Positions 11,427 to 61,064 of a stretch of DNA of 64,000 bases are shown in pieces. The position numbers and the translations under genes are program-made. The notes under the pieces were generated by a model that saw nothing but the letters and a program-made list of their open reading frames with translations, searched no databases and was not told the DNA's origin. Source of the stretch: Octopus sinensis (lineage: Eukaryota); assembly GCF_006345805.1 (NCBI RefSeq), contig NC_043023.1, positions 15,872,001 through 15,936,000 on the forward strand, given 5' to 3'. The first letter of the stretch is position 1, and every line of letters starts with the position of its first letter.

Positions 11427-14400
11427 TCAATGTTCGTCCTTCGGTTCGAAGATGACAAACTGACATCATCTGATGGAACTGCCGCCATGAGACCTGAGGT
11501 GGCTGGTGAGGCCAATCCGGGCAAGGAAGCCCCTCCCACAGGTGGGGCAGAAGTGGGTAGGGGCAGTGCTACTGGTGCAGGCGGCTCTGGCTTTACGCAT
11601 CTGACGTTTCTGCTCCGCTGACCGAATCCGTCCCTCCTCGGCTGTCCCTGCTCCCACGGTGATTGCGCTGCGCCAGGATGAGCGGTTGGCAGCAAGTGTC
11701 TCCCAGGTCTCTGTTCCGATGGAGAAGTCTTTGAGAGAGACCTTAAGACTATCCTTGTAGCGCTTCTTCTTCCCTCCGACTTTGCGCCTGCCCTGGCCGA
11801 GTTCACCGTAGAAGAGCTGTTTTGGGATGCGAGTGTCGGACATGCGGCAGACGTGGCCCGCCCATCTCAGCTGGGCCTTGCGCATGATTGTGATGGTGCT
11901 AGGGAGATCTGCCTGCTTCAGAACTTCCGTGTCTGGGACTTTGTCCTGCCAGCGGATATGAAGGAGATTCCGAAGACACCTGAGATGGAAGTGGTTTATC
12001 TGGCGCTCGTGCCTTCGGTAAGCAGTCCACGTCTCGCAGCCGTATAGTAGGGTGGTAAGCACGACTGCCCGGTAGACTTTCAGCTTGGTGTTGAGGCTGA
12101 TTCCTCTCCGCTCCCAGACTTTCTTTCGCAGTCTCCCAAACGCGCTGCTTGCCTTGGAGATTCTGTTGATGGTTTCAGCATCTATGTTGGCATTGCAGGA
12201 GAGAGTGCTGCCCAGGTAGGTGAAGTTTTCCACCACTCGTAGGATCCGTCCGTTCACCCTTATCTGAGGCTCATGGTATTGTTTGCCGGGGGCTGGCTGA
12301 AACATCACTTCGGTTTTCTTGGCACTGATGGTGAGACCGAAGTTGTCACAGGCTGATGAGAACCTGTCCATCTCGAGCTGCATCTCCTGCTCATCGATTG
12401 CATTAAGGGCGCAGTCGTCAGCAAAGAGAAAGTCTCTGACGACTGTCTCCCTCACCTTTGTGACAGCCTGCAATCTTCTGGAGTTGAAAAGTTTCCCGTC
12501 TGTCCTGTACTTGATGTCGATACCGGACTTGCAGTCCCTAAAGGCGTCGAACAGCATTGCCGAGAACATGATGCTGAACAGTGTTGGGGCCAGGACACAG
12601 CCCTGCCTGACTCCGTTGGTCACCTGGAAGGCTTCAGATGAGTTGCCGTCTTCAAGGACTCTGGCTGTCATTCCGTCGTGGAACTGGCGGACAATTGCAA
12701 TAAATTTGCTGGGGCAACCAAATTTTCCCATGACCTTCCATAGTCCCTCCCGACTGACTGTATCAAAGGCCTTGGTGAGGTCAACAAAGGTCATGCAGAG
12801 GTCAAGGTGCTGCTCCATGCATTTCTCCTGGAGCTGGCGGGCGGCGAATATCATGTCAGTGGTCCCTCGACCCGCGCGGAAGCCACACTGGCTCTCAGAG
12901 AGAAGGCCTTGCTCCAAGTGTTCCAGAAGGCGGTCAAGCAGGACCCGGGCCAGGATCTTGCCTGCTATGGACAAGAGGGAGATACCTCGGTGGTTGTCGC
13001 AGGACTGCCGATCTCCTTTCCGCTTATAAATGTGGACGATTGTTGCGTCCCGGAAATCTTGAGGGAGTTGTTCCCTGTCCCACATCGACTGGAACAGGCT
13101 GGTGAGCTGACTGATCATGGTGGGGCCGCCCGACTTGAACACCTCTGCAGGGATGGCGTCAGAGCCTGGAGCTTTGCCGGTGGACATTTTTTTGATGGCT
13201 CTGCTCACTTCCTCGACTGCGGGGGGAACAGCCAACTCGTGGTTTGTCGGCACCTGGGGGAGTCGTGCGATGGCTTCCTCGTTGATCTGGGCTGGTCGGT
13301 TGATCACGATGTTGAAATGCTCCGCCCATCTCTCCAGGATCAGCCTCTTGTTAGTCAGGAGTGAGGTTCCATCCGAGCTGAGCAGGGGGGTTGATCCAAA
13401 GGAGAACTGCGGTCCATAGACAGCTTTCAGCGCCTCGTAGAATTTCTTGGTGTCGTGTTTGTCTGCGTATCCCTGAATCTCATCCGCCTTGGCGCTTAAC
13501 CATGCGTCTTGCATGAGGCGGAGTTTAGCCTGGACTGTGCTGCGAATGTTGTTGAAAGCGGCCTTCTTTGCCGTGCAGGTGGTGTCGTTTTGGTGAGCCC
13601 GCAGCAGACGGCGTTTCTCTTCCAGGAGCTTTTGGATTTCCTGGTCGTTTTCGTCGAACCAGTCCTGGTGGTTCCTCGTAATTTGGCCCAGAGTTTCAAG
13701 GGCGATGGAATGAACCGTGTCCCTGAATGATTCCCACTGCTCATCGATGCTGGACTGGTCACTCCGAATGTCCAACAGCTTGCTGTCCATACGTGACTGG
13801 AGATCTTGTGCAGTCAGCTGGTTCTTTAATTTCGTGATGTTAAGCTTCCTCGTCACTTTCTGACCCTGTGGTCTTCTCTTAGGTCGGATGTAGAAATCCA
13901 TCCTGGAGATGATGAGGCGATGGTCCGTCCAGCAGTCAGCTCCGCACATGGCTTTGACCAGTCTCACGTCCTGCCTGTCTTTCGCCCTGACGATGACGTA
14001 ATCTATCAGATGCCAGTGTTTGGAGCGTGGATGCATCCATGATGTCGTATTGCGTGTTGGCAGACGGAACAAGTTGTTGGCGATGGTAAGATCATGAGAG
14101 GCACACGCACGCAGGAGGAGCTGCCCTTTGTTGTTGCACTTTCCGATTCCTTGCTTTCCCAGTACGCGATGCCAGGCTTGGTGGTCAGTCCCGACACGGG
14201 CGTTAAAATCCCCAAGGAGGATGAGCTTCCCAGGCTGGGCTGACGTGATGAGGGAGTCGAGTTCCTCATAGAACCTGTCCTTAACTTCTTCAGGGTTGGT
14301 CATGGTGGGGGCGTAAGCACTGATGATGGTCGCACTAGTCTTGTTTCCAAGTGGGAGCTGCATCTTCATCAGCCGATCGTTGATACCCTCGGGGGGGGGG

Positions 14401-15398
14401 GCTTTCCAGTTTCCGCACGTGTACTGACTTGATGGCAAAACCATCACCAGCCTCACGACGCTCTTCGCTGCTGCGACCACTCCAAAAGAAAGTATAGCCG
14501 CCGCCTGTCTCTGTCAGCTGGCCTTTGTCCCCAAGGCGGGTCTCGCTCAGTGCTGCAATATCGACATTGTATCGGCTCAGTTCTCTGGCCACCAGGGCAG
14601 TTCGTCTCTTTGGTCTGTCCGCTTTGGTGTTGTCAAGCAGAGTTCTCACGTTCCAAGTTGCGAAAGTGAGCACCTTTGTTTGTTTTCTTCTTTCTTTGTT
14701 TCGACCGCTTGGAAAGGATCCCCGCCAGCCGCGGTTTGCTGACCAGGGTGAGGTGAGGCAGGCTATGTTTAGGGCAACCTTTTCTAGCCCCGTCCTCATG
14801 CTGGGGAGGCGAGCAGAGCGATCCTGAAGAGGGCTGCTCGGTCACTCAGGAGGCTGCCGGACTCCACTGCTGCCTCAGTTCAGTGAGGGGCGACCACATG
14901 TCCTGAGCCGCCTGTGTGTGGGTTCACGACTGCAGCTCCCAGTGTATCCTCACCTGCTACTTCGCCGTTTCCCCATCGCCACAGGACTTTGGGATGGTGT
15001 CATGACGTCATGATGTCGTGACATGCGCGTGAATTGGATTATAGTGAGGGTGACTTGCGCAGGATCAGCCTCACTCTCTCGTCCTGGTGCGCCGGATCCA
15101 GTGGCAAGACAAAGTCAAGACGACTGGGGGTAGACCAAGATGCAGGAGCTGCCGGAAGGTGGCACGCATGGCGCAATCCAACCGCCTTAGGGGCTCCACT
15201 CCGGATTTTGGATGGCCATTGACTCATGAGAGAGTTCCTCTGCCCTTTGACAGGTTTTGTTTTTAGTCCTGCTGGGTGTCCAAATCACCCTCCTCACCAA
15301 GAAATCTTGGTGGGGTTGCCAGTTTAGTCGCCAACGACCATGTAACAGGTTGTACTGGGTTACATGTTACCAGTAGCTCCAAGCGGAGACCTGACAAC
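11427..15398 (-). mobile_element. RTE-clade LINE, apparently full length (about 3.97 kb), 10-bp TSD AATCACTGAT
   Basis: TSD at 11417-11426 and 15399-15408; single APE+RT ORF; short 3' end GTCATCTTCGAA..GAAGGACGAACA; about 600-bp 5' UTR. Confidence 0.95.
11466..14799 (-). CDS. RTE ORF: AP endonuclease, reverse transcriptase and C-terminal C2H2 finger; one frameshift in a G11 run (14391-14401)
   Basis: TWNVRTL, LSETR, GDFNARVG, IDYVIV, TDHRL, QCGFR, FVDLTKAFD, GVRQGC, LFADD, CPTC..H..H. Confidence 0.92.
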
Positions 15399-19950: not shown

Positions 19951-21212
19951 CGAGGGGCGTTCAATAAGTAATGCCTCTGACCCACTTGCCTTTGTTTGAT
20001 CTAGCTGAAATTTTGCATGTGCAATTATTGATATCTCTATAGATTAAGTGGCAAATTACAGCTCCGAACTAATTGTGGTTTCTGATTTACAGGTGTTTGA
20101 AATGAGTCAAGTGGGAAATGGAGCATGTTGAGTGTCGAGCAGTGATCCGGTTTTTGTATTTGAAAGGACGCACACCACAGGAGACTTTTAATGAAATGAA
20201 AGTAACTTATGGTGATGATGCCCCATCATATGACCTTGTAATACGCTGGCATCGTGAATTCAAACATGGTCGGAACTCTGTGGAAACAGCTCCCAGATCT
20301 GGTCGCACCCCTTCTGCCATTGATGAGGCATCTGTCCGTCAAGTTGAGGCTACCATTTTGGAAGATCGACGCATAACTATTTCGCGAAATAGCCCATGAG
20401 GTCAAGATTAGTACCGGGTCTGTGGAAACTATCATTCATGACCATTTGCATATGCAAAAGGTGTCTGCCAGATGGATTTCCAGGTTGCTCACACTTTTCC
20501 AGAAGCAAGAACGCAAGAATTTAGGGATGTGCCAAGATGAGTCAAACTTTTTCAAAAGACTGATTACACAGGATGAGACCTGGGTCCATCACTATGATCC
20601 AGAGACCAAAGCCCAGTCAATGCAGTGGAAGCACCATGACTCACCTCCTCCAAAGAAGGCAAGGGTGCAGCCCTCCGCTGGCAAGGTCATGCTCACAGTC
20701 TTCTGGGACCAGGACGGAGTAGTGATGACAGATTTCCTGGCAAAGGGTACCACAATTGCAGGAGCCTATCATGTTTCACTTTTGAGGAAATTAAGAGAAG
20801 CTATCGAAACCAAGAGGCGGGGCAAGATCAGCAAAGGCATCCTCCTCCTGCAGGACAACGCTCCGGTCCACAACTCGCGTGTCGCCAGATCAGAAGCACA
20901 GGCGTGCGGCTATGAACTCTTCCCCATCCCCCCTACTCTCCTGACCTTGCACCCTCTGATTTTCACCTCTTCCCAGCCATGAAGTTGTTTTTGAAAGGAA
21001 AGCGTTTCCTAGATGATGCAGCCTTGATTTCTGAAGTCACGTCGTGGTTGGAGGACCAGGCTGGTGTCTTCTATGAAAACCGTCTCCAGAACTGCATCAA
21101 ACGATGGGAGAAATGCGTACCTCTGGGTTGTTCCTATGTAGAAAAAGACTAATACCTGTGCCAAGTTTCGTTGTTCTACTGGTCAGGGGCATTACTTATT
21201 GAACGCCCCTCG
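19951..21212 (+). mobile_element. Full-length mariner (DD34D-type) transposon with TA TSD
   Basis: TIRs CGAGGGGCGTTCAATAAGTAATGCC / GGCATTACTTATTGAACGCCCCTCG flanked by TA; 1262 bp. Confidence 0.95.
20118..21152 (+). pseudogene. Mariner transposase, frameshifted
   Basis: HTH N-terminus, ITQDETWV, LLQDNAP, YSPDLAPSDFHLF and RWEKCV spread over shifted frames. Confidence 0.92.
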
Positions 21213-21639
21213 TATTTATTAAAACTTATTAAAACTTCGATCGTTGTATGCCTGGTCGTCATAATGTTGCCACCATGCACAAAATGCCAACTTCTCTGAT
21301 TGAGTAAAAATGCCCTTTTACTTGTTTCAGTCATATGACTGCGGCCATGCTGGAGCACCGCCTTTAGTCGAGCAAATCGATGAAAGACGACAAGCCGTTC
21401 CATTGTTTGAGAGAAAATAAGATTTTATTTACAAGGTGTTAAGGTTAGAAGGTTGTGAGTGCTAGCAAGTGTTGTGTATGTGCGCAAGCAACAAGTGCTT
21501 TTGTGTCTGTGGCAGATACAAATGAGGGTGAATGCGTGTGACACAGAAAGTACAGAGCATAGAGTTAATGATGGAGATTGGTTTACAGTTCGTAAGGTAC
21601 ACGATATGTAAGAGTTCCATATCAAGATGTGTTTCAGGC

Positions 21640-21930
21640 GGAGACCGGTTGGGCGAATATTGTCGAGCCGCGATTTCATCGTTGAACTTACTCTCCTCCG
21701 ACCGCCCGTTGCGGCAGAAGTTTTCGGCTTTTACTGACGCGTATGTTGCGTCAGGGTGGGGACTCATTATGAGATCCCTGACCGATGTGGCGAGTTTGGG
21801 AGGCAAACTCGAATAGAGCAGATGCAACTGCTGCCGTGGAGGAACGGCATGGGCGGAAAAATGCGACTCCACCTGGGCAAACCACAGACCCGCATCCCCC
21901 GTGAACAAAGGCAAACCTGGTGCAGCCATG
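21640..21930 (-). mobile_element. Ty3/Gypsy gag N-terminal fragment
   Basis: MAAPGLPLFTGDAGLWFAQVESHF...PDATYASVKAE; similar to the gag pieces at 55.1-56.2 kb. Confidence 0.75.
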
Positions 21931-22295
21931 TTCGTCCGAAAACGCCTGTCAGAAAGGGGCAGAAGGTAAGAACGAGAAGCGGAGAACACGCGGAACCGAC
22001 AAAACAAACCAAAAAATAAAATGTGTTTGTGTACTGGTGTGTGTGTGTGTGTGCACTTTGTGGGTAGTAGAGAAATAGGTGTGTGTGCACAAAGGAAAAA
22101 CAAAGGCTACAGAAAAATAATGTGTGAGGACTATTTTTTTTTTTTTTTCAGTGTACTGAGTGCGATGGATAAAACTTTTTGTACGCACCTTCGCCGTCCT
22201 GAAATGGAAAAAAAAATGAAACTGAAACTGAGAGGTCAATCCACGTGTGTGCTGACTGGCAAGCCTGTTCGCTGCGTCTTCTGTTTATTTTTTTC

Positions 22296-38959: not shown

Positions 38960-40643
38960 CATTGGATCTTTTCACTTTGACCGGCAGATTTAAAAAATAA
39001 TTTTTTTTCTAACTAAACACTTCTGAACTTCGCATATACTGGTAGAATGTGTTTTTTAAAAAACATCTTTTTCTCTTGGCTTTATTGAGAAAATTCTATG
39101 GTTTGTAAGATATTTGGGATCATTTCGGTTTGAACGGCAGTTTTTTAAAATAATTTCCACGTAACTAAACACTTTTAAACTTCGTATACTGGTAGAATGT
39201 GTTTATAAAACATCTTTTTCTCTTGGCTTTATTGAGAAAATTCTATAGTTTGTAAGATATTTGCTTTTTTTCTTCTTCAATTTCTGCAATTTCGACCAAT
39301 CAATGACGTCTATTGAGGTGAAAACATTCGGATCTTTTCTGTTTGAACGGCAGATTTTTAAAATAATTTCCATGTGACTAAACACTTTTAAACTTCGATT
39401 ACTGGTAGAATGTGTTTATAAAACATCTTTTTCTCTTGGCTTTATTGAGAAAATTCTATAGTATGTAAGATATTTGTTGGGTTTTTTTTTCTTCAATTTC
39501 TGCAATTTCAACCAATCAATGACGTCTTTTGAGGTAAAAAAACATTCTGTACCGTATGAATATGTCCATCATTTAAGAAACAGATTGGGTTTATTTACAT
39601 TTCTGAAGAAAAAAAGATGCCCTTTCCGGATCTTTTCGGTTTGAATGGCAGTTTTTTCTAGCGGTGTCATATGAAATTGTCACCCATAATTATGACCCTA
39701 GTATCGATCTATTGCATTTCAATCTGTTTTAGGGTTAGGGTTGGTTAGGGATGGGGGAAGGGTATCTGCTTTTCTTCAGAAATGTAAATAAACCCAATCT
39801 GAACCGGTAACCATGTGGCTCGTAAGCAAGCTCCTTACCACACAGCCACTCCTGTGCCTAAGTTTTGTCTTTTTTTTTTAAAATCCTTTTTGGTTGATGC
39901 TTTATGTTAAATTTTTCTGCTTTCTTTGCATTTTTGTTTTCAAAAATATGTTATATAGGAATGGGTGTGACTGTCATAAGAAGCTTGCGGGTCTTTTCCT
40001 TTTGAACGGCAGACAATTTCTAGTTAACTTTGAAACTTCGTATACTGGTAGAATGTGTCAAAATAAAACGTAATTTTTTCTTGGTTTTATTGAGAAAATT
40101 CTATAGTTTGTAAGATATTTTCACTATAAAATCAAGCATTTTGGCAATTTTAACCAATCAAATACGTCCATTTGGAGTCAAAGCATTCTGTGCCGTATGA
40201 ATATGTCCCTCCTTTAAGAAACAGATTGGGTTTATTTACATTTCTGAAGAAAAAAAGATACCCTAACCCTAGTCCTAAAATAGATTGAAATGCAATAGAT
40301 CGATACCAAGGCCATAATTATTGGTGACAATTTCATATGACACCGCTACGGAAAATGGGATTTTTTTCTAGCGGTGTCATATGAAATTGTCACCAATAAT
40401 TATGGCCCTGGTATCGATCTATTGCATTTCAATCTATTTTAGGGTTAGGAGAATGGTATCTTTTTGTCTTCGCAAATGTAAATAAACCCAATCTGTTTCT
40501 TAAACAAGGGACATATTCATACAGCACGGTTTGTTTTGACTCCAAATGGACGTATTTGATTGGTTAAAATTGCCAAAATGCTCGATTTTAAAGTGGGAAT
40601 ATGTTACAAACTATAGAATTTTCTCAATAAAACCAAGAAAAAA
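38960..40643. repeat. Cluster of GGATCTTTTC..TTTGAACGGCAG family repeats, ending in a ~570-bp palindrome (40075-40643)
   Basis: Recurrent AAACTTCGTATACTGGTAGAATGTGT units (also 33105-33400 and 35080-35380); symmetry centre near 40355. Confidence 0.8.
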
Positions 40644-40866
40644 TGGCCTTGCTTTTTGCTTTTTGAGCCAAAAAATTAACTTAACTTAACTTGGCAGAAT
40701 TTGAACCAAGAATGTAAATATCGATAGAATACCTCCAAGCATATTGTCCTGCAAGCTGACCATTTACCCAGGTCACCACCTTTGTAAAAGTAAATATCAA
40801 TAGTTTATTACATCGGTCATACTCTGGCGATCAGATTTCATTTTTGTTTTTATATTTTTTCAGATC

Positions 40867-40909
40867 ATGAAATTCACATTACCCATTTCTTTTCTTGTAT
40901 TAAGTTCCT
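40867..40909 (+). CDS. Orphan secreted/GPI protein gene, coding exon 1 (MKFTLPISFLVLSS)
   Basis: T-rich tract and CAG acceptor at 40863, ATCATGA start, T|GTAAGT donor, hydrophobic signal peptide. Confidence 0.8.
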
Positions 40910-40936
40910 GTAAGTTTTTTTATTTTATTTTCTTTC

Positions 40937-41165
40937 TTAATCCTTTTGATACTAACCCGCCTGAAACCGCCTCTGGCTCTGAGTACAAATGTCTGGTTTT
41001 CATAAGTTTTGAATTAAAATCTTCCACCAAACCTTAGTCACAATTTATGTTCCTAACACTAGCTTAATGATAACTAAGTTATTTTACTAAATTCTTTGTT
41101 ATATTTAAAATTAATTGAAAGAAACACAGAGCATCTCAACAGAAATATGGGAACAAAAGGGTTAA
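40937..41165. mobile_element. piggyBac-type MITE (TTAA TSD)
   Basis: TTAA-TCCTTTTG...AAAAGGG-TTAA; same family at 44345-44548 and 44572-44795. Confidence 0.65.
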
Positions 41166-41412
41166 ATCCTTTTTCTTTAACATTTTTTTTCTCGAAATAA
41201 TTGTTTCAAACATCATTTACGTTAACATTGGTGGTTCTTTTTTTCATTTTTGCTTTTATAAATATGTTGTGTTATTTATTTGGTTTTAGCCAATATGGCT
41301 ACAATTGTATTACAACAATGCTTCTATCATCATCATCATCATCATTTTGACAGTGTCGAAACATTTAAGAATCAATTGGTTCTGACAACCAGGATTTTCA
41401 AAGTATATATAC

Positions 41413-41456
<44 letters not shown>

Positions 41457-42046
41457 TCTTTTACATGTTTCAGTCATTTGACTGTGGCCATGCTGGAGCA
41501 CCGCCTTTAGTCAAGCAAATCGACCTCGGGACTTATTCTTTGTAAGACCAGTACTTATTCTATCGGTCTCTTTTGCCGAACCGCTAAGTGACAGGGATGT
41601 AAACACACCAGCATCGGTTGTCAAGCAATGCTAGGGGGACAAACACAGACACACAAACACATATATACATATACATATATACTTCTACTATAGCCTTGGG
41701 CCAACCAAAGCCTTGTGAGTGGATTTGGTAGATGGAAACTGAAAGAAGCCCGTCGTATATATGTATATATATATATATCATCATCATCATCATCGTCGTT
41801 TAACGTCCGTTCTCCATGCTAGCATGGGTTGGACATATATATATGTGTGTGTGTTTGTCCCCCCAACATCGCTTGACACCCAATTCTGGTGTAGTTGCAT
41901 CCCCGTCACTTAGCAGTTCGGCAAAAGAGACAGATAGAATAAGTTCTAGGCTTACAAAGAATAAGTCCTGGGGTTGATTTGCTTGACTAAAGGCGGTGCT
42001 CCAGCATGGCCGCAGTCAAATGACTGAAACAAGTAAAACAGTAGTG

Positions 42047-42081
<35 letters not shown>

Positions 42082-42182
42082 GTGTGTGTGTGTGTATATA
42101 TATATTTGTGTATACATATGTATATATATATGTGTATGTATATATATATTTGTGTATACATATGTATATATATATGTGTGAG

Positions 42183-42221
<39 letters not shown>

Positions 42222-42850
42222 ATATATATATATATTTGTGTATACATATGTATACATATGTGTGTGAGTATATCTATATATATCATCATCATCATCGGTT
42301 GATGTCTGCTTGGATGATTTGACTGAGGTCTGGCGAACCAGATGGCTGCACCAGACTCCAATCTGATCTGGCAGAATTTCTACACCTGGATGCCCTTCCT
42401 AACGCCAACCACTCCGAGAGTGTAGTGGGTGCTTTTACGTGCCACCGGTACGAGGGTCACTCAAGCAGTACTGGCAACGACCATGCTCAAATTGTGCTTT
42501 TTATGTGCCACCTGCACAGGAGCCAGTCCGGCGGCACTGGCAACGACCTCGCTCAAATGTTTTTTCACGTGCCAGTAGTATTTATATGTATATGCATATA
42601 TACTTGTATATATATATGTATACATGATGTGCAACATTTTGGCTTGACATGGCCAGTTTAAATGGTAGATAGTTTTTAACGATTGAACTGAGAACCACAT
42701 TTTCAATAACCTCTCTCGAAAATTCCACAGTATAGAACATGTAACTTCATCTCCTGTTAATTAGTATTTAATTATTGTAAAAGAAATAGTAAATAGTCCT
42801 GTTGATAAAACGTAAAATCTGAAAACGATTTTTTTTTGTCATTTTCACAG

Positions 42851-42919
42851 TAGCTGTAGAAGCAAAAGTCGTGTGGAATGCACATCGAAATGCAAATATA
42901 ACCAAAGGTTCCCAAAGTG
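42851..42919 (+). CDS. Orphan gene coding exon 2 (LAVEAKVVWNAHRNANITKGSQS)
   Basis: TTTTCACAG acceptor, G|GTAAGA donor, 69 nt phase 1-1; completes the signal peptide (AVEA). Confidence 0.8.
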
Positions 42920-43091
42920 GTAAGAAAGTTAATAAACCCTTTTTGAATCCTTTAAATTAGACACTCGCATACATGTGTGTGTATGTAAGTCTCTCTCTGT
43001 CTTTCTCTCTCTCTATATATATATAGAGATTCCTGTTCATCAAACGTAAAATCTGAAATCAGAATTTTTTTTTTTTATTCTTTCACAATAG

Positions 43092-43151
43092 ATGTAGAAG
43101 TCAAACTGGGGCCAGACACAAAAGCAGATGAAACCAAGGATTCCCGAAATG
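43092..43151 (+). CDS. Orphan gene coding exon 3 (DVEVKLGPDTKADETKDSRN), duplicate of exon 2
   Basis: TAG acceptor, G|GTAAGA donor, 60 nt phase 1-1, homologous flanking intron. Confidence 0.7.
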
Positions 43152-43216
43152 GTAAGAAAGTTTATAAACCCTTTTTGAATCCTTTAAATTAGACACTAAC
43201 ATAAATGTGTGTATAT

Positions 43217-43286
<70 letters not shown>

Positions 43287-44061
43287 TAATAAATAAAATA
43301 TATGCATACATACAAACATATATGTACGTACCTAAATCTACATGTATATATACATGCATATATAAATATATATACGTGAGTACAGGACACTACAACTAGA
43401 TGTAGAACTCAACGAGAAACGAAAAAGCAAAAACAAGCATGGAACAGACCGTTTTTTTAACAATGAAAAAACAGAGTACAAGACAACTACACAAGGAAAA
43501 ATCCCCTTCATCAGCTGTCACTAGTTCAACTCCAGCGTGTTTCGAAGGTGAGGACAGAACACGACTCGTCGAACTAGTCCTTCCTGCGAAAGAATTAAAT
43601 AAAATTCCTTTGCAGAGGGGTAAAAACAAGGAAAAAGAATTGTGACAAAAACAGGACGTAAAAACAATACAATTAAAAACAAATACAAAATATATATATA
43701 TATAATGTATGTTTGTAGGTATGCAAAATGGCGTCTTCTTTCTGTCAATCCCTCTATACCAAATCCACTCACTTTGGTTGTCTCTGGGCTATAATTACTA
43801 TTTAATTATTAGAACAGAAATAGTAAATACTAGCACCATGTCATGGTAGCGCTGGGTCATAGTGCTAGTGCATGCATATACACGTGAGTGCTGTCCAAAT
43901 CTGTTAATTACATATAATTATTGTAACAGAAATAAAGGCGGTGCTCCAGCATGGCCGCTGTCAAATGACTGAAACAAGTAAAAAGAGAGAAAAAAAGAGA
44001 GTAAATAGTCCAGTTGATAAAATGTAAAATCTGAAAAGAATTTTTTTTTTCATTTTCACAG

Positions 44062-44136
44062 TAGCTGTAGAAGAATCAACCTCCAGCGTGTATGATATAC
44101 ATCGAAATGCAGATGAAACCAAAGGTTCCCGAAATG
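44062..44136 (+). CDS. Orphan gene coding exon 4 (VAVEESTSSVYDIHRNADETKGSRN), duplicate of exon 2
   Basis: TTTTCACAG acceptor, G|GTAAGA donor, 75 nt phase 1-1. Confidence 0.75.
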
Positions 44137-44232
44137 GTAAGAAAGTTAATAAACCCTTTCTGAATCCTTTAAATTAGACACTCATATAAATGTGTGTGTA
44201 TTTAAGTCTCTCTATCTATCTATCTATCTATC

Positions 44233-44263
<31 letters not shown>

Positions 44264-44571
44264 GATTAATAAATAAAACATAGGAACGCACGCATCCATT
44301 TCTAAGTAAGATTGTTCTTGATATTAATAATGATGCGCACTCTTGACCTTTCTCAGCCTTCATTCTTTCTGGTTTCCTTGTTTTCATAAGTTTTGAATTA
44401 AAATCTTCCACCAAACCTTAGTCACAATTTATGTTCCTAACACTAGCTAAATGGTAACTAAGTTATTTTACTAAATTCTTCGTTATATTTAAAGTAATTG
44501 AAAGAAACACAGAGCATCTTGACAGAAATATGGTAAGAAAAGGGTTAAAATATATAATAGAGAAACAATTC

Positions 44572-44795
44572 TTAACCCTTTTGATACCAACCTGGCTGAA
44601 AGCACCTCTGACCCTGTAGTACAAATGTCTTGTTTTCATAAGTTTTGAATTAAAATCTTCCACCAAACCTTAGTCACAATTTATGTTCCTAACACTAGCT
44701 TAATGATAACTAAGTTATTTTACTAAATTCTTTGTCATATTTAAAAGTAATTGAAAGAAACACAGCATCTCAAAATATAGTAACGAAAGGGTTAA
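44572..44795. mobile_element. piggyBac-type MITE (TTAA TSD)
   Basis: TTAA-CCCTTT...AAAGGG-TTAA. Confidence 0.7.
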
Positions 44796-45610
44796 GGAAG
44801 GTTAAAGAGCTAGAAATACAAATCGGAGGGGCCACTAGAGCTGTACTTTGCTTGTAGTGTTGAAATGGCTGCTGGGGGTCAATTTAGGATTTTGTTGCTA
44901 AAATTTCTGTTTAATTAATTCCTTATAGTTTTATTATACTATAAGGTGCAGGAGGGGCTGTGTGGAAAGTAGCTTGGTTACCAACCACATGGTTCCAGGT
45001 TCAGTCCCACTGCGTGGCACCTTGGGCAAGTATCTTCTACTATAGCTTCAGGCTGACCAAAGCCTTGTGAGTGGATTTGGTAGACGGAAACTGAAAAGAA
45101 GCCCATCGTATATATATATACGAAATCAGCCGAAATTGCTACGATGATCCAGTTCTTGACTGAAGATTGAAGGCTTCGAATGTCCCGTCCGTGTTTTTTG
45201 TGTCGTCTTCTAAGTGTTTTGCGTTCTTGCCCCAGTTTGTATTTTTCTACATATAATAATAAAATATATATATATGTGTGTGTGTGTTTGTGTGTCTATG
45301 TTTGTCACCCCGATATCGCTTAACAACCGATGCTGGTGTGTTTACGTCCCCGTAACTTAGCGGTTCAGCAAAAAGAGACCAATAGAATAAGTCCTGGGGT
45401 CGATTAGCTCGACTAAAAGCGGTGCTCCAGCATGGCCACAGTCAAATGACTGAAAAGAGTAAAAGAGAATCAGAGGGTCCACTAGAGCTGTACTTTGCTT
45501 CTAGTGTTGAAATGGCTATTGGGGGCCAATTTAGGATTTTGTTGCTAAAATTTGTTTAATTGCTTATAGTTTTATAAAAGGCAATATATCCAAATATTTT
45601 GTTCTTATAG

Positions 45611-45667
45611 GTGGTGAAAGCAGAACTGTTACAAGTAGTGATGGATCTTCTACTACTATCAGACCTG
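45611..45667 (+). CDS. Orphan gene coding exon 5 (GGESRTVTSSDGSSTTIRP)
   Basis: TTTTGTTCTTATAG acceptor, G|GTAAGT donor, 57 nt phase 1-1. Confidence 0.75.
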
Positions 45668-45849
45668 GTAAGTGGGTTTCCTATTACATTTAGCGTTTGT
45701 GGCTAGAAACCTCATTCGTAATTCTTTCTTCAATACCACCCAATCTGTAAAAAAAAGGCATCTGAAAACCTTAGAAATACCCTACAGTCTAGATGTATTA
45801 CAAAGGTCAGCATTACTTGGGCCTGCATGCATATTGTTTAAAGTACTGT

Positions 45850-46200
45850 CTGTCTGAGGTTCTAGCTGAGACTTGACAAACAGTCCTGCTCGTGTCAGAG
45901 CATAAACAGCCACCAGCCTGAGGACACCCCTGTCACTACTGTTCATGTCCAGTATCACCAACTTAACTTGAGGGTCTACGAAGATAGGCCCCTCTGGAAA
46001 AACACTGCAGTTTCACCTTGTATTCCTGGTTGACATGGAGATAAATAGATCTTGGAAATGGCCAGAGAGTCTGGTTTCACTGATGGTCACGACATCAACA
46101 CTTAGTGACCTGAGGTCATTGAGTAGATGGCCCTGTTTCCAAGACAACCCAGGCCACATGCATTTATACTGCCTATTCCGAACAAGGCCATATCGGGTTA
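45850..46200 (-). mobile_element. L1/Tx1-like AP-endonuclease relic
   Basis: WKQGHLLNDLRSLSVDVVTISETRL; homologous to 53293-53555. Confidence 0.7.
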
Positions 46201-46489
46201 GACTACGGAAGAAGAAAAGGTTACTCACAGTACTTTTGTGGGGATGGATGTTCCATCCTCATTGGTATATATGGATGTTTCAAGGCAGCAAGCTGGCAGA
46301 GACGTTAGCACGGCAGGCGAAATGCTTAGTGGTATTTCGTCCGCCGCTGCGGTCTGAGTTCAAATTCCGCCGAGGTCGACTTTGCATTTCATCCTTTCGG
46401 GGTTGATAAATTAAGTACCAGTTATGCACTTATCCGTTTGTCCCCTCTGTGTTTAGCCCCTTGTGGGTAGTAAAGAAATAGGTATATAC

Positions 46490-46888
46490 TCTCTTTACTT
46501 GTTTCAGTCATTTGACTGAGGCCATGCTGGAGCACCGCCTTTAGTCAAGCAAATCGACCTCGGGACTTATTCTTTGTAAGCCCAGTACTTATTCTATCGG
46601 TCTCTTTTGCTGAACCGCTAAGTGACAGGGACATAAACACACCAGCATCGGTTGTCAAGCAATGCTAGGGAGACAAACACAGACACACAAACACATACTT
46701 ACATATATATACATACATATATACGACGGGCTTCTCTCAGTTTCCTTTTACCAAATCCACTCACAAGGCATTGGTCGGCCCGGGGCTATAGCAGAAGACA
46801 CTTGCTCAAGATACCACGCAGTGGGACTGAACCCGGAACCATGTGGTTGGTTAGCAAGCTACTTAACACACAGCCACTCCTGCGCCTA
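46490..46888 (-). mobile_element. SINE family A
   Basis: Reverse complement of the family A sequence. Confidence 0.85.
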
Positions 46889-48042
46889 TATATGGATGTT
46901 TCTTTATATAGTCTTTTATTGACGTCTCTTCCGAAGGACCCTACTCCGTCAGGAAATTTAGTTTTTATGGTATTGAGTCTTGTGATGTTTGGATGACCCC
47001 TATGTGTGTGTGATGTCTGTATGGTTATGTGTGTGACCCCTTGGGTCTTTATTGTTTGTGTTTATTGCTCTGTAGTTCAGAACGTTTGACCTTTGCTGGT
47101 GTTGAGACATTTGGGAGTTGTGTGTGTGAATTGGGTTGTGTGCTTGTGAGGGTGGTGTCGACGGTAGTGATTGGGGTGATGTTTGTTATTGAAGGTACTA
47201 GTGTGGGTGCTGTTGGTGGAAATATTTGTCAATTTGTTTTCAAAGGTGTTTCCTACCTGTCAGATTTTTGTGTTGATATTTCACCTGTTGACATTTTGCC
47301 ATTCAGACTCTTTGTCAGCACCATCCCCCTGTGAAGGACACGCCTGGCTGCCCTAATAGGTGAGGGACAAATTTGTAGGAATTTCTGTTGTTGTTTTTGC
47401 TGCTGTTTGCTGTGTGGAAACCCTAAATGTTGGTGAATTCTTTGTTCTGTTGGCTACTGTTGTTGTTGTTGTTCTTGTTGTTGCTTGATAGATATTGCTT
47501 TTCCAGCTCTAGTGGTCACCTGCCTCTGCTCTTGTTGTGGTTGTTGTTAAGCAATATCTTCAATCAGCAACCTCATCATATCGTTTACTGTACAATGACT
47601 ATAATAGCCCTGATGCAGTACCAGGCAGTGGCTCTGATGGCTTCTGATCTTAACTGATTGGAAGTGTTATCATGTACACTGTTTTGTCTTGGTATAAAAG
47701 ATGGGCTACAGCAAATATTCTGCTCAATACCACAGATTTGCTTGTCAGTTGTTTGACCGTAACCAGTTGAGCATGTCCCTTAGTGGCTGACGATATGTGC
47801 ATCTCTGATCACGAGCAGAAGTAGTGGGGGAGCATCATAGCCATGTGTTGAGAGGGATTCTTTGGGGTTTGAATAGTTCACCTCTGGAAACATGGGTGGT
47901 TCTTTCAACATCCTTAAACAACCCTTATTCAGGGACCGTTTGAGCAGGAGGGGCTACTCAACCTGAAGAAAATTCTAACTGGGCCCCACCTGCAAGGTCA
48001 TATGCTGTTTATCTTGATATGAGATCACCATGTCCTAATCAT

Positions 48043-48382
48043 GAAAATAATTGCAGCGTGGAAGGTGTTTGTAAGCCATTTAAGAAACACACAAAAGCCG
48101 TTCGATTCACTTCAACATTTAAGTTTAATTTGTCAAAATATTTTCGTCCCTTTAAGACCGCAACCTGTTTACTGACAAAAATCCGTGCTGCATCTTGTCA
48201 GTGAACAGGTGGCGGTCTTAAAGCGAGGAAAATATTTTGACAAATTAAACTTAAATGTTGAAGTGAATCGAACGGATTTTATGTGTTTCTTAAATGGCTT
48301 ATTAACACCTTCCACGCTGCAATTGTTTTCATTCCAGTACACGATCTCAGATCAAATCACTTGCTATGCAAGTACATCTCCG
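48043..48382. repeat. Inverted repeat, about 135-bp arms
   Basis: TTGCAGCGTGGAAGGTGTT...CTGACAA mirrored by TTGTCAG...AACACCTTCCACGCTGCAA. Confidence 0.85.
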
Positions 48383-49544
48383 TAATATTTTTCTAATATT
48401 TAAACAAAAATCACAGTTTGTAACTGAACAAGTTCAAAAATTTCTTTTGAATTAGTTTTTTTTTTTTTGTTTTGTTTGACTGAATGGATTAGTTAGCTTC
48501 ATTCTCAAGGATCAACTATCTTTTTAACTATTTAGTTGCTATAGAATGGATTTGCATTCTCTAGTTTCTTGTTTGAGAAAGAAGAATTCAAAGAGAAAAA
48601 TATTATCAAGAATAAAAATTGACAGAAACCACTGTCTTTACCAATGCTAGATAATCCTTCTATCAGATGCAGGATAATTTACTAATTATTATTATTAATT
48701 ATTTACTAATTCATTTTTATCATGAGATTTTGGTTTTGGTTAATTTACTGATTATTCATTTTTATCATAAGATTTTGGTTAATTTATTAATTATAAATAA
48801 TTTACTAATTATTCATTTTTATCATGAGATTTGAGTTTTGGTTAATTTACTTTCACCATAGCCCTTAATATTTTCTTGGGTGTTTTATCCCCTCCCAATT
48901 CTTTATACCAGCCATTTTCATTGTTATGTTAAAATTTTGAGCCACCAAATTTAATTACACAAGAATGCCAGGAAATCCTTATACAACACTTGTTACGAAT
49001 TTAATAAATAAGAACGTTTCAGTTTTTTGTTTGAATAATGAGGAAATTAATTATATTTAAATAATAAGAAAAATAAATGCGCCCTTTTTAAAGACTAGCC
49101 AGGCTCATGGGCCCAGTTTCCCGATTTCTATGGCATGTATTCCCCAGCTGGACGGGACGCCAGTCCATCACAGCGTTACTCATTTTTGCCAGCTGAGGGG
49201 ACTGGTGCAACGTGGAATGAAGTGTTTTGCTCAAGAACACAATGCGTCGCCCAGTCCAGGAATCGAAACCACAATTTTACAATCATAGTGCTGACACCCT
49301 AACCCAGAAGCCTCCACTATTTAAATAATGTGTAAATCTATATGCTGCCCCTGGTAAACGATGGACTGATCCATTTTTGTGCTAAAAAAGTCAGTCCCCT
49401 TTGTTAATGCTTCGTAACCTTTCTAAATAATGGACTGATCTGAAGGAGAACATTTAATGAATTAGACATAGTAGTCCAAGATATTTGTGTCTGTCGACCC
49501 TTTTTCTTACCATGTTCCTGTTTAAATATATTGCCTTTGTTTAA

Positions 49545-49921
49545 GGTGGCGAGCTGGCAGAAACGTTAGCACGCCGGGCGAAATGCTTAGCGGTATTTCG
49601 TCTGCCGTTACGTTCTGGGTTCAAATTCCGCCGAGGTCGACTTTGCCTTTCATCCTTTCGGGGCCGATAAATTAAGTACCAGTTATGCACTGGGTCGACA
49701 TAATCGACTTAATCCGTTTGTCTGTCCCCTCTGTGTTTAGCCCCTTGTGGGTAGTAAAGAAATAGGTATTTCGTCTGCCGCTACGTTCTGAGTTCAAATT
49801 CCGCCGAGGTCGACTTTGCCTTTCATCCTTTCGGGGTCGATAAAATAAGTACCAGTTACACACTGGGGTCGACATAATCCGTTTGTCCCCTCTGTGTTTA
49901 GCCCCTTGTGGGTAGTAAAGG
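49545..49921 (+). mobile_element. SINE family B with tandemly duplicated 3' part
   Basis: GGTATTTCGTCTGCCG...GTAGTAAAG occurs twice. Confidence 0.8.
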
Positions 49922-50223
49922 AATATATATTGCCTTTGTTTCAATAAATTTTGGAAACAATAAAGAATTTAGGGGAACAATCTTGCCCTTACTAAGCTAG
50001 TGTTTGCAACACAAGTTTATTTGAAGTTTTGATGGAAAGTTTTACTTTAATGGCGGTGCCCCAGCATGGCCACAGCTCGTGAGCTGAAACTAGATGAAAT
50101 AAAAAATATTTAGATATCTTTAAAACAAGGTACTATAGAAACAAAGGCAGTTTTAAACAGGTTGGTATTACTATTTTTTATTAAAAACAAAAGGTATATG
50201 TGTTTATTTTTTGTCTTTTGCAG

Positions 50224-50333
50224 ATATGGGAACAACAAAAGAGCCTGGATCATACGCAGCAGTAACCAGCATGCCCAACTATGCCGTAGTGGTACTTTGC
50301 GTACTTGGTGCTTTGAAGCATTTCTTTTTATAA
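50224..50333 (+). CDS. Orphan gene terminal coding exon (DMGTTKEPGSYAAVTSMPNYAVVVLCVLGALKHFFL*)
   Basis: TTTTTTGTCTTTTGCAG acceptor, phase 1, small residues then a hydrophobic tail to TAA, GPI-signal-like. Confidence 0.75.
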
Positions 50334-51114
50334 TCTTCTTTTCAATTGGATCAAAATTCACGTTCTTTTGTAGGCGTAGGAGTGGCTGTGTGTTAAGTAG
50401 CTTGCTAACCAACCACATGGTTCCGGGTTCAGTCCCACTGCATGGCATCTTGGGCAAGTGTCTTCTGCTATAACCCCGGACCGACCAATGCATTGTGCCA
50501 TGCAGTGGGATTGAACCCGGAACCATGTGGTAAGCAAGCTAATTACCACACAGCCACTCTTGCACCACCCAACATATTTTGTTTATATTTAAAGTGTGTT
50601 TATCATCCAAATAAGATTCTCATTAAAGAATATATTTTTATTTAAAAAAACTGCATTAATACGTTTTGTGTTACTCTTTTCCTTGTTTCAGTCATTTGAC
50701 TGCGGCCATGCTGGAGCACTGCCTTTAGTCGAGCTACTCGACCCCGGGACTTATTCTTTTGTAAGCCCAGTACTGATTCTATCGGTCTCTTTGGCCGAAC
50801 CGCTAGGTGACGGGGACGTAAACACACCAGCATCGGTTGTCAAGCAATGCTAGGGGGACATACACGCACACATATATACGACGGGCTTCTTTCAGTTTCC
50901 GTCTACCAAATCCACTCACAAGGCTTTGGTTGGCCTGAGGCTATAGTAGAAGACACTTGCCTAAGATGCCACGCAGTGGGACTGAACCCGCAACCATGTG
51001 GCTGGTATGCAAGCTACTTACCACACAGCCCCTCCTGCACCTATATCAATATTATAAGAATATAAATAAAACATAAAAAACAGACAGAGTTGGAATTCCT
51101 TTGAGTAATATACA

Positions 51115-54999: not shown

Positions 55000-56200
55000 T
55001 GCGGGCCACACCATCTCACGCCACCAATGCCAGCATTATATTGATGTCTCTCCACTGTTTTCATAATTTGGCTGAACCGAATATGAACGAAGTCTCAACA
55101 AGCAGGAAAAAACACATTTCCCAGCAATGTAACTGTTATGTTATAGATATCATTACAGATCCTAGCCCAGACGCCACCTATGCGACTTTCAAGGCAGAAA
55201 TTCGACGCAACACGCAGTCGGAAGAAAGTAAATTCAATGAGCTGATGGCAGATGAGCAGCCAGGGGACAGGACCCCGTCGCAATTCTTGCGTCGCTTGCG
55301 CAAATTAAGTGGGAACTCCGCAGACACGCCCTGCTTCGTAAAATGACTGAAAAGAGTAAAAGAGAATCAGAGGGTCCACTACAGCTGTACTTCACTTCTA
55401 GTGTTGAAATGGCTGCTGGGGGTCAATTTAGGATTTTGTGGCTAAAATTTGTTTAATTAATTGCTTATAGTTTTATTATAGGCAATATATCCAAATATTT
55501 TGCTCTTAATGGTGGTGAAAGTGGAACTATTACAAGTAGTGGTAGATCTACTATCAGACCTTTCATCCTGTTACAATTGGTGACCCCTGAACATAAAACG
55601 AACATGCGAGCCAACAGATGTACACAGCAACTCGCCCAGGTTTTTATACACTACTGTTTGTGAATAATTTCACTGTCGTATTCACAACTACTATACAACC
55701 TGCGGGCCAGACCATCTCACGCCACCAATATATTGATGTGTCTCCACTGTTTTCATAAGTTGGCTGAACCGAATACAAATGAAGTCTCAACAAGCAGGAA
55801 AAAACACATTTTCCAGCAATATAACTTATGTTATAGATCTCATTACAGATCCTAGCCCAGACGCCACCTATGCGACTGTCAAGGCAGAAATTCGACGCAA
55901 CACGCGGTCGGAAGAAAGTAAATTCAACGAGCTGATGGCAGATGAGCAGCCAGGGGACAGGACCCCGTCACAATTCTTGAGTCGCTTGCGCGAATTAAGC
56001 AGGAGCTCTGCAGACGCGCCTCTGCTTCGTATAATATTCTTCTCCAGGTTGCCTGCCAACCTTCAGACAATTTTGGCTACAGCCCTTGAGTCCAACACTG
56101 TGGACCAAATTGCCACGATGGCAGATAAAATTTTGGAATTTTCTGGCCAGCCAACGTCGCGTGGCGTGTGCGTTTGCACTGAGATCCCTTTGACAGCCTG
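55000..56200 (+). mobile_element. Two Gypsy gag fragments with an LTR-end/PBS between them
   Basis: PDATYAT.KAE...GDRTPSQFL.RLR twice; CTGTTACA|ATTGGTGACCCC at 55568-55587. Confidence 0.8.
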
Positions 56201-56873: not shown

Positions 56874-57173
56874 AGAGAATAGGCAATATATCCAAATATT
56901 TTGCTTTTAATGGTGGTGAAAGTGGAACTATTACAAGTAGTGGTGAATTTTCTACTACTATCAGACCTTTCTATCAGAGAATAGGCAATATATCCAAATA
57001 TTTTGCTTTTAATGGTGGTGAAAGTGGAACTATTACAAGTAGTGGTGAATTTTCTACTACTATCAGACCTTTCTATCAGAGAATAGGCAATATATCCAAA
57101 TATTTTGCTTTTAATGGTAGTGAAAGTGGAACTATTACAAGTAGTGGTGAATTTTCTACTACTATCAGACCTT
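56874..57173 (+). repeat. 102-bp tandem repeat x3 derived from exon 5 of the orphan gene and its acceptor region
   Basis: AGGCAATATATCCAAATATTTTG at 56881, 56983 and 57085; similar to 45579-45666. Confidence 0.88.
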
Positions 57174-57264
57174 TCATCCTGTTACAATTGGTGACCCCTG
57201 AACTTAAAACGAACATGCAAGCCAACAGACGTACACAGCAACTCGCCCAGGTTTTTATACACTA

Positions 57265-60327: not shown

Positions 60328-61064
60328 TGAATAAGAAACTCCCAAAGTGTAATCTACTTGTATTAAGGGGCTTGCCAAATACTGGCAAATCTATGGTAGC
60401 TAGAAGTATTGCTGAGATGTTCACTCATGTCAGCACGATTCAGGGGACAAGGAGTTTCCCATTTCAAAACTTGATTAATGTCGAAATAGGTTTAATCGAA
60501 GAACCGAATTTCACTTTAGAAACACTTCAGACATTCAAAAAGCTTGCTGAAGGGACTGACACTGAAGTTTCTGTAAAATTCAAGCCAGACCAGGTTGTCC
60601 ACAGAACACCATTGATCATTACTTCAAACAACAAATTCGACAGCAACGCACCATTACACGAAAGATATGCTTTCATCACGAGATACACAGAATATCTTTT
60701 CCAAAAAACATCTCCTTTCCTTCAATATGTTAAGAAAAAAATTAATCCTATTATATGGAATGTATTATTTTATGAACATTGTTTTTCTTCTTTAATTAAT
60801 GACGATGGTTCCTCATCGGATGACAATTTATGTCACATTCTATGAAGAATATGAAAAGCTCACCAATCGAGAGACGCCGACAAAGAAAACAAGCGACCAG
60901 GTGGATTTCGGACTCTGTCTGGTTCTGGAAGCGGGTCAACCGTTAGAGTCTTCTCCGAAACAGACGAAGAAGAACAAGTCCCAGAAAGAAGGAAAAAGTT
61001 CAGAAAGCTGAGATACACACCAAATTACGAGGCTGATAGTGAACTATCAGATTCCGAACTGTAA
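60328..61064 (+). pseudogene. Endogenous parvoviral NS1 C-terminal half, copy B
   Basis: Walker A GLPNTGKS, Walker B IGLIEEP, B' FKKLAEG..V..KFK, motif C PLIITSN; same frame resumes after two TGA with RRKKFRK and an acidic end. Confidence 0.9.

Follow-up and report, generated by a model that had tools for sequence, protein, structure and literature searches.

A six-exon gene in the window

The window, a 64,000-nt stretch of the Octopus sinensis genome (NC_043023.1, positions 15,872,001 to 15,936,000 of the forward strand), contains a six-exon gene on the plus strand, LOC115225255, which can be read from the raw sequence. Rescanning 40600-50600 of the window and rebuilding the gene model by script, we obtain an exon join of 414 nt that is free of stops up to the TAA at its end and translates into a 137-aa protein (Table 1). 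All introns are bounded by GT..AG and every junction lies in phase 1; specifically, exon 1 leaves one base over and the lengths of the internal exons are multiples of three, which keeps phase 1 throughout. An earlier note, made from the sequence alone, had proposed these six exons, their splice sites, the shared phase and the stop-free 137-aa protein, and all are exact by script. The start given there, 40864, is the base after the exon 1 acceptor, and the actual ATG is at 40867.

The 137-aa protein is identical to RefSeq XP_036370253.1, "uncharacterized protein LOC115225255 isoform X1" of Octopus sinensis. The protein query, a 40-aa open frame ending at the exon 6 stop (50211-50330) and reaching 4 codons into the intron, matched three O. 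sinensis RefSeq proteins named LOC115225255, and the cluster lists six isoforms. Isoform X1 (137 aa, P0009) is the six-exon join; isoform X3 (118 aa, P0005) lacks exon 5, and isoform X5 (112 aa, P0010) lacks exon 4. Exon 3 has an alternative acceptor at 43098, 6 nt downstream, which is used by isoform X2 (135 aa, P0006) and, together with skipping of exon 4, by isoform X6 (110 aa, P0004), whereas isoforms X1, X3 and X5 use 43092. In isoform X4 (117 aa, P0008), an alternative last exon replaces the hydrophobic tail with another peptide, located at 47309-47356. All five of the other isoforms (X1, X2, X3, X5 and X6) equal joins of window exons when tested.

The gene is thus not hidden, as the earlier note had called it, and its absence from the track of open reading frames is explained by the lack of any exon longer than 110 nt. 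Its public record gives no function, family or localisation. A literature search found no publication carrying its LOC, XP or UniProt identifiers, and among the titles and abstract openings of the papers listed on octopus, GPI-anchored proteins (GPI, glycosylphosphatidylinositol), signal peptides and novel genes, none concerns LOC115225255. The six-exon structure is far beyond chance, because the RefSeq model is identical, the exon 5/exon 6 joint is present in reads, and the exon plan is repeated at four other loci (below). LOC115225255 is real and ordinary, has already been annotated and has no known function; that it is a genuine spliced gene is nearly certain. Exon calling from raw sequence has rediscovered a public gene with all six exons exact; what we add to the public record is a family of five loci, seen in our searches only in O. 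sinensis and Octopus vulgaris, a fully symmetric exon plan, and coding exons that change faster than their introns.

Table 1. Positions of LOC115225255 exons and of related pieces in the window
Feature	Position	Strand	Description
Putative exon 0, non-coding	40729..40789	+	5′ boundary putative; donor GT at 40790
Exon 1 with acceptor	40864..40909	+	conserved acceptor cag/ATC; predicted signal peptide MKFTLPISFLVLSS; start of RefSeq isoforms X1-X6
Exon 1, coding part	40867-40909	+	43 nt from ATG; ends in phase 1
Exon 2	42851..42919	+	69 nt, phase 1-1; repeat type A, LAVEAKVVWNAHRNANITKGSQS; predicted cleavage site AVEA/K and N-I-T sequon
Exon 3	43092..43151	+	60 nt, phase 1-1; repeat type B, DVEVKLGPDTKADETKDSRN
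Exon 4	44062..44136	+	75 nt, phase 1-1; repeat type A, VAVEESTSSVYDIHRNADETKGSRN; cassette
Exon 5	45611..45667	+	57 nt, phase 1-1; Ser/Thr-rich GGESRTVTSSDGSSTTIRP; cassette
Alternative last coding exon of isoform X4	47307..47356	+	acceptor ttcag/AC; tail DSLSAPSPCEGHAWLP; stop 47354-47356
Exon 6	50224..50333	+	110 nt including TAA; DMGTTKEPGSYAAVTSMPNY and 17-aa hydrophobic tail AVVVLCVLGALKHFFL; predicted GPI-attachment signal
Decayed copy of intron-4 tail and exon 5	55482..55561	+	acceptor lost; 84% identity
Three head-to-tail 102-bp units, decayed intron-4 tail and exon 5	56874..57175	+	acceptor and donor lost; Tandem Repeats Finder (TRF) period 102, 3.0 copies, 99% matches

Exons 2, 3 and 4 are mutual tandem duplicates, intron flanks included (TRF period 232; 76-83% identity). 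Furthermore, exon 1 is preceded by a strong acceptor (ttttttcag/ATCATG) that is kept in all four family loci aligned, so coding exon 1 is probably an internal exon with a non-coding exon before it. A putative exon 0 lies upstream; it is ~95% alike across the alignment of four family loci and is homologous to the first coding exon in the public models of a paralog, LOC115225104. The window reads ATA at 40729-40731 where the paralogs read ATG. LOC115225255 may use this exon, as judged from these alignments.

Splicing of exon 5 to exon 6 in public reads

Twenty public runs were found, none of them on record as RNA, and runs X1-X14 were taken as RNA by guess. We examined reads over 45300-50450 in four runs: X1 and X6, which belong to the same study, and X2 and X7, which come from two further studies. 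At the sites predicted by the earlier note, contigs of runs X2 and X7 contain the joint of exon 5 to exon 6: the joint 45666->50223 skips 4556 nt and, with the cut shifted by +1 to GT..AG, equals 45667/50224. Its depth is 112.1 in run X2 and 60 in run X7, and it occurs in neither run X1 nor run X6 (two of four runs, two of three studies). The exon 6 contigs span 50223/50255-50423 at depths of 78 (run X2) and 120 (run X7), compared with ~5-25 for unique intron pieces, and place the 3′ untranslated region to at least 50423. Run X6, the largest, has zero depth in the exon 6 bin, indicating that the runs behave as RNA, unlike genomic DNA, and that expression varies among samples. All seven exon 6 matches in the genome carry the intron flank, which argues that no processed copy in the assembly lies behind the joint.

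Across the whole depth of runs X2 and X7, position 50253 is A, not T. Residue 112 thereby becomes Asn in place of Tyr, and all paralogs and the O. vulgaris model likewise have Asn. For the last exon of isoform X4, the reads give a weak hint, with depths of 34.3 (run X2) and 75.6 (run X7) at 47325-47330 against ~6-31 nearby.

A family of five loci

In the genome to which the window belongs, where C27 denotes the contig of the window, searches give 4 matches for exon 1, 13 for exon 3, 15 for exon 5 and 7 for exon 6. The 5′ region gives five full-length matches among 40 scored (170 candidates), and these five are the family loci. They are the window itself, two further loci on its contig (C27:11.73 Mb and C27:7.29 Mb) and two that cluster at C4:11.35-11.42 Mb. 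The end of a high-copy repeat makes up the query's first ~54 nt (40640-40693), upstream of the stretch that is conserved, and 35 of the 40 scored matches lie only there or are weak. Besides the window gene, the family comprises one annotated paralog, one further open copy and two decayed loci; solitary copies of exon 6 are present at C4:11.377 Mb, C4:11.465 Mb and on C11529. The description of the gene as an orphan in the earlier note therefore stands with respect to recognisable families and falls with respect to a single gene, as paralogs are present on C27 and C4.

The annotated paralog at C27:11.73 Mb, LOC115225104, is composed of exon 1, five cassette repeats and exon 6 (46, 75, 60, 60, 75, 60 and 110 nt) and is open over 161 aa. 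The copy at C4:11.39-11.42 Mb (40, 75, 54, 57, 57, 57 and 164 nt) is open over 167 aa, 18 of them additional residues that result from loss of the stop. In our spliced models of both copies, the exon lengths all hold phase 1. The other two copies are decayed, the one at C4:11.35 Mb by a stop within exon 1 and the one at C27:7.29 Mb by an exon 1 that is shortened and non-hydrophobic, with exon 6 not present. LOC115225104 and its O. vulgaris counterpart P0012 share with LOC115225255 the exon plan, the phases, both repeat types and the last exon; unlike LOC115225255, LOC115225104 has five cassette repeats, no exon of the exon 5 type, and basic clusters. Exon 3 of the window is 95-96% like three exons of this paralog. 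The public models of LOC115225104 (P0011, P0013 and P0014) and P0012 start upstream, with MPPSILTSKLTIYPGHHLCK, and the signal-peptide exon at C27:11.73 Mb is intact and open in the DNA despite being skipped in the models.

In the paralog at C4:11391800-11420000, exon 5 is present in three identical copies, separated by 9 kb and 5 kb and with flanks that are also identical, and exon 6 recurs as two solitary inverted copies (C4:11.377 and 11.465 Mb) with the same lost stop. These repeats may be recent segmental duplications or assembly repeats. An origin of exon 5 from a high-copy transposon was considered and rejected, since its 15 look-alikes genome-wide are all in family loci.

A predicted secretory peptide with a candidate GPI anchor

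The N-terminal segment of the protein, residues 1-19, combines Lys2 with a hydrophobic core and a site, AVEA/K, that fits the -3/-1 rule, and its best 12-aa Kyte-Doolittle mean is 2.07. The 90-aa body is hydrophilic (mean hydropathy -1.1) and lacks Cys; it contains 23 Ser/Thr, 13 Lys/Arg and 15 Asp/Glu. The C-terminal hydrophobic tail, residues 121-137, reaches a best 15-aa mean of 2.29; it is preceded by G110-S-(Y/N)-A-A and the spacer (A)VTSMPN, and the protein ends in this segment, without cytoplasmic residues. The usual GPI signal is built in this order, from small residues, a short polar spacer and a terminal hydrophobic segment. By rule of thumb, attachment could take place at Ser111 (Ala at +2) or, with the allele that runs X2 and X7 carry, at Asn112-Ala-Ala.

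Both hydrophobic ends are kept in all three open copies, with best windows of 2.07, 2.77 and 3.07 at the N-terminus and 2.29, 2.68 and 2.48 at the C-terminus. The coding part of exon 1 is only 58-60% alike among these copies, yet remains hydrophobic; in cleavable targeting signals, sequence changes while hydrophobicity stays. The best conserved coding part among copies is GS-N-A..TSMPNY, before the tail. According to one study, signal-peptide cleavage sites have an excess of phase-1 introns (PMC1626468). The features on which the earlier note relied hold up here, namely the counts for a Cys-free Ser/Thr/charged body, the presence of an N-I-T sequon, and the signal-like N-terminus and GPI-signal-like C-terminus, whose hydrophobicity the paralogs keep. 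The sequon (N30-I31-T32) is present in the window protein and is not conserved, the other copies carrying sequons elsewhere, so that no conserved N-x-S/T site marks the family as N-glycoproteins. AlphaFold2 with the family alignment predicts helices only at 7-32 and 121-136, at a mean predicted local distance difference test score (pLDDT) of 49.4 and a predicted template-modelling score (pTM) of 0.16; the Atlas's own model is similar (pTM 0.17), and neither model gives a confident fold.

Judged from the sequence, a cleavable signal peptide is probable, and a GPI anchor is slightly more probable than not. We consider it likely that LOC115225255 encodes a small disordered Cys-free peptide, predicted to be secretory and to be held by GPI at the cell surface. 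Exon 1 would supply the cleavable signal peptide (AVEA/K), the cassette exons a variable, charged, Ser/Thr-rich stalk, and exon 6 the GPI signal, formed by G-S-(Y/N)-A-A, the spacer VTSMPN and the 17-aa hydrophobic end. With symmetric internal exons, duplication, loss and skipping would all be frame-neutral, which would explain both the isoforms and the differing repeat numbers of the paralogs. Isoform X4, without the hydrophobic tail, would be a soluble form.

The same C-terminal segment could instead be retained as a transmembrane anchor of a secreted or type I membrane protein, with no exchange for GPI. The 17-residue tail contains Lys-His, and the 18 extra residues of the C4:11.39 Mb copy include basic ones (..FLRREKI) and look like a span with a short cytoplasmic tail. 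However, the proteins of LOC115225255 and LOC115225104 stop with the hydrophobic segment, and no cytoplasmic residue follows it; the segment is also short for a span, and the small residues and 6-7 residue polar spacer before it match the GPI build given above. We regard a retained transmembrane anchor as quite unlikely.

Repeated units that end in K-G-S-R-N, together with basic clusters in the paralog (RKKHRK, KKHRK), the tail-less isoform X4 and fast evolution, are also features to be expected of a precursor cut into short soluble bioactive or antimicrobial peptides, one per cassette exon. Such a precursor is highly improbable here: there are no dibasic pairs at the unit borders of LOC115225255, whose units end in SRN or SQS, most isoforms end in a hydrophobic stretch, as peptide precursors seldom do, and no similarity to any peptide family was found in Pfam or in a profile search of 5.8 billion proteins.

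The layout predicted for a GPI-held surface peptide is alike, on paper, to that of the CD24/CD52-type vertebrate GPI peptides, in which a signal peptide precedes a short, disordered body rich in Ser/Thr and free of Cys, and a GPI-type signal forms the C-terminus. A CD24 cluster appears among the Atlas look-alikes at 0.76 and 0.81, under the 0.9 bar, and no family match, CD24 (Pfam PF14984) included, is obtained at E<=1. The comparison made in the earlier note accordingly holds for the predicted layout and not for membership in the CD24 or any other Pfam family. In contrast to CD24/CD52, LOC115225255 is longer and more charged, has repeated phase 1-1 exons and few prolines, and carries a single non-conserved sequon. 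Modular extracellular proteins arise by shuffling of phase 1-1 exons, and LOC115225255 resembles them in its symmetric internal exons, its phase 1 intron after the predicted signal peptide and its frame-safe variation in exon number; unlike theirs, its modules are disordered repeats of 18-25 residues and not folded domains.

Relatives in Octopus vulgaris and the reach of the family

To define the reach of the family, we searched 5.8 billion proteins with isoform X1 and with a profile of seven family proteins. These searches, which need shared 5-residue words and covered lengths of 61-291 residues, returned only O. sinensis (two genes) and O. vulgaris. Pfam gives no family for P0009 at E<=1, and a profile search of the PDB gives no chain at E<=1, in agreement with the earlier statement that no family is recognisable. 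On these searches, the family appears to be lineage-restricted, seen so far only in two octopus species.

The proteins of LOC115225104 and of its O. vulgaris counterpart are 48-53% identical to isoform X1, and this O. vulgaris 'Hypothetical predicted protein', P0012, is 96% identical to LOC115225104 (140/146). Between the two species, exon 6 shows no difference in the LOC115225104 paralog and differs at 1 of 35 residues in LOC115225255. The O. vulgaris ortholog of LOC115225255 is found within P0007 (1116 aa), a protein named 'adhesion G-protein coupled receptor G6-like', in which exons 2, 3 (short form), 4 and 6 make up the final ~100 residues. This tail is identical to isoform X3 at 92 of 104 residues. 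Of the 12 differences, 9-10 lie within the 23 residues of exon 2, which is thus a hot spot of change between the species; the remaining ~79 residues contain Tyr112Asn, and the rest is a two-residue gap from the short exon 3. The divergent O. vulgaris exon 2 is not a second O. sinensis cassette, the best genome match being exon 2 of the window itself at 59% identity.

P0007 raises the alternative that the exons are the 3′ end of an adhesion G-protein coupled receptor gene, and the identity of its tail to isoform X3 speaks for it. However, only residues 1015-1116 of P0007, encoded by four small exons, match the window, and the receptor part maps to C27:8.4-9.7 Mb, at least 6 Mb away, and to other contigs, in a stricter first look that may miss weak matches. 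In that look, no receptor exons (leucine-rich repeats, seven-transmembrane segment) adjoin upstream in the genome, and the gene was rejected as a member of that receptor family. Furthermore, six stand-alone RefSeq models have their own ATG, and the paralog is stand-alone in both species. P0007 is probably a chimeric annotation, and a receptor origin of the exons is extremely improbable.

Divergence of exons and introns

We compared exon identity with that of 150-nt intron flanks between copies (Fisher test). Exons are less alike than flanks between the window and the C27:11.73 Mb copy (exon 188/237, flank 548/606, p 3e-5), between the window and the C4:11.35 Mb copy (93/120, 492/546, p 3e-4), and between the C27:11.73 Mb and C4:11.39 Mb copies (47/72, 267/284, p 2e-9). 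As a control, exon-sized windows were slid along the colinear alignments; against the two C4 copies, each of the eight exon comparisons that aligned ranks within the bottom 0-7% of non-exon windows, with exons 3 and 6 outside the chains. The proportion of nonsynonymous differences (pN) equals or exceeds that of synonymous differences (pS) in 7 of 10 exon pairs, which contain only 13-25 synonymous sites each and overlap as pairs. The faster divergence of exons than of introns suggests that diversifying selection on an exposed peptide is probable, and weak constraint is its main rival.

Weak constraint is also at the centre of a broader alternative, in which the copies form a young, transcribed family without a settled function; the frame and the hydrophobic ends would persist by recency, and the protein, if made, would do nothing specific. 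Relatives only in O. sinensis and O. vulgaris, a pN/pS of ~1, the lack of a fold, the decay of two of five loci (C4:11.35 Mb and C27:7.29 Mb), public paralog models that skip the signal-peptide exon, and a locus set amid transposons with decayed exon 5 pieces nearby all fit this alternative. By contrast, in the three open copies exon 1 (43, 46 and 40 nt) and the cassettes differ in length only by multiples of three, both ends remain hydrophobic despite ~40% sequence change, and the segment before the tail is conserved. In addition, exons diverge more than introns, and not equally, against the C4 copies, and exon 6 is near-fixed between species (identical in the paralog, 1/35 in this gene). We judge a young family without a settled function to be unlikely.

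Several observations weigh against the reading of LOC115225255 as a GPI-held surface peptide under diversifying selection. First, the signal-peptide and GPI calls come from hydropathy and from simple residue rules of our own making; Lys-His stands close to the end of the tail, residue 112 of the reference is Tyr, which is not small, and the O. vulgaris ortholog has N-K-I-K where the N-I-T sequon would lie. All four public paralog models skip the signal-peptide exon and would yield a protein without a signal peptide, and the Atlas language-model look-alikes are all below 0.9 and serve as leads only. Second, the read-based support spans one of five joints (exon 5/exon 6), the joints of exons 1-5 resting on public isoform models; the runs are RNA by guess and not by record, and two of the four (X1 and X6) have little or no exon 6. 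Third, the effect against the C27:11.73 Mb copy is weak in the control, with three exons at the 0.28-0.30 quantile, exon 3 at 0.75 (95% alike) and exons 1 and 5 unaligned, and a pN/pS near 1 with two decayed copies of five also fits weak constraint.

A more far-reaching proposal is that these are octopus-restricted surface peptides whose exposed part, made from interchangeable phase 1-1 cassettes, serves as a recognition or defence code and not as a housekeeping coat, diversified by exon duplication and loss, by skipping and an anchor-less end, and by positive selection. Part of this proposal is the contrast between one exon, with 9-10 of 23 residues changed between the sister species, and a remainder that is almost fixed. 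We regard this proposal as speculative and, in its full form, doubtful. If the peptides are at the cell surface, they would be a compact case of lineage-restricted surface molecules arising and diversifying in cephalopods.

Surroundings of the gene in the window

The 102-bp units at 56874-57175 are 87-88% like 45581-45666. Runs X2 and X7 also contain 102-bp units arrayed head to tail, and this unit resembles the intron-4 tail and exon 5 (45579-45666) at 95% or more; the depth is 62-122, near the level of exon 6, and the linker of this array has the same 14 letters as that of the decayed array in the window. Because the window array is only 87-88% like 45581-45666, the transcribed array must be closer to that stretch than the copy present in the assembly, or have another location.

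The window is transposon-rich. A 1004-aa frame at 11469-14480 (minus strand) encodes a LINE-type (long interspersed nuclear element) endonuclease and reverse transcriptase (RVT_1, E 1.2e-32), 20422-20979 (plus strand) is a mariner-type transposase fragment (E 5.6e-23), and 21465-22103 (minus strand) is a DUF7041 frame (E 2.1e-11). The open frame at 60372-60842 (plus strand), 157 aa long, has matches to Parvo_NS1 (E 8.3e-11) and to the E1 helicase domain of papillomaviruses (E 2.2e-7); it is a superfamily 3 (SF3) helicase fragment and possibly a virus-derived insert in the octopus genome. A short element with ends like TTAACCC..GGGTTAA is present at 40934-41166, just after exon 1, and twice in intron 4 (44377-44795); it occupies the same places in the paralogs, indicating that it was inserted before the family duplications.

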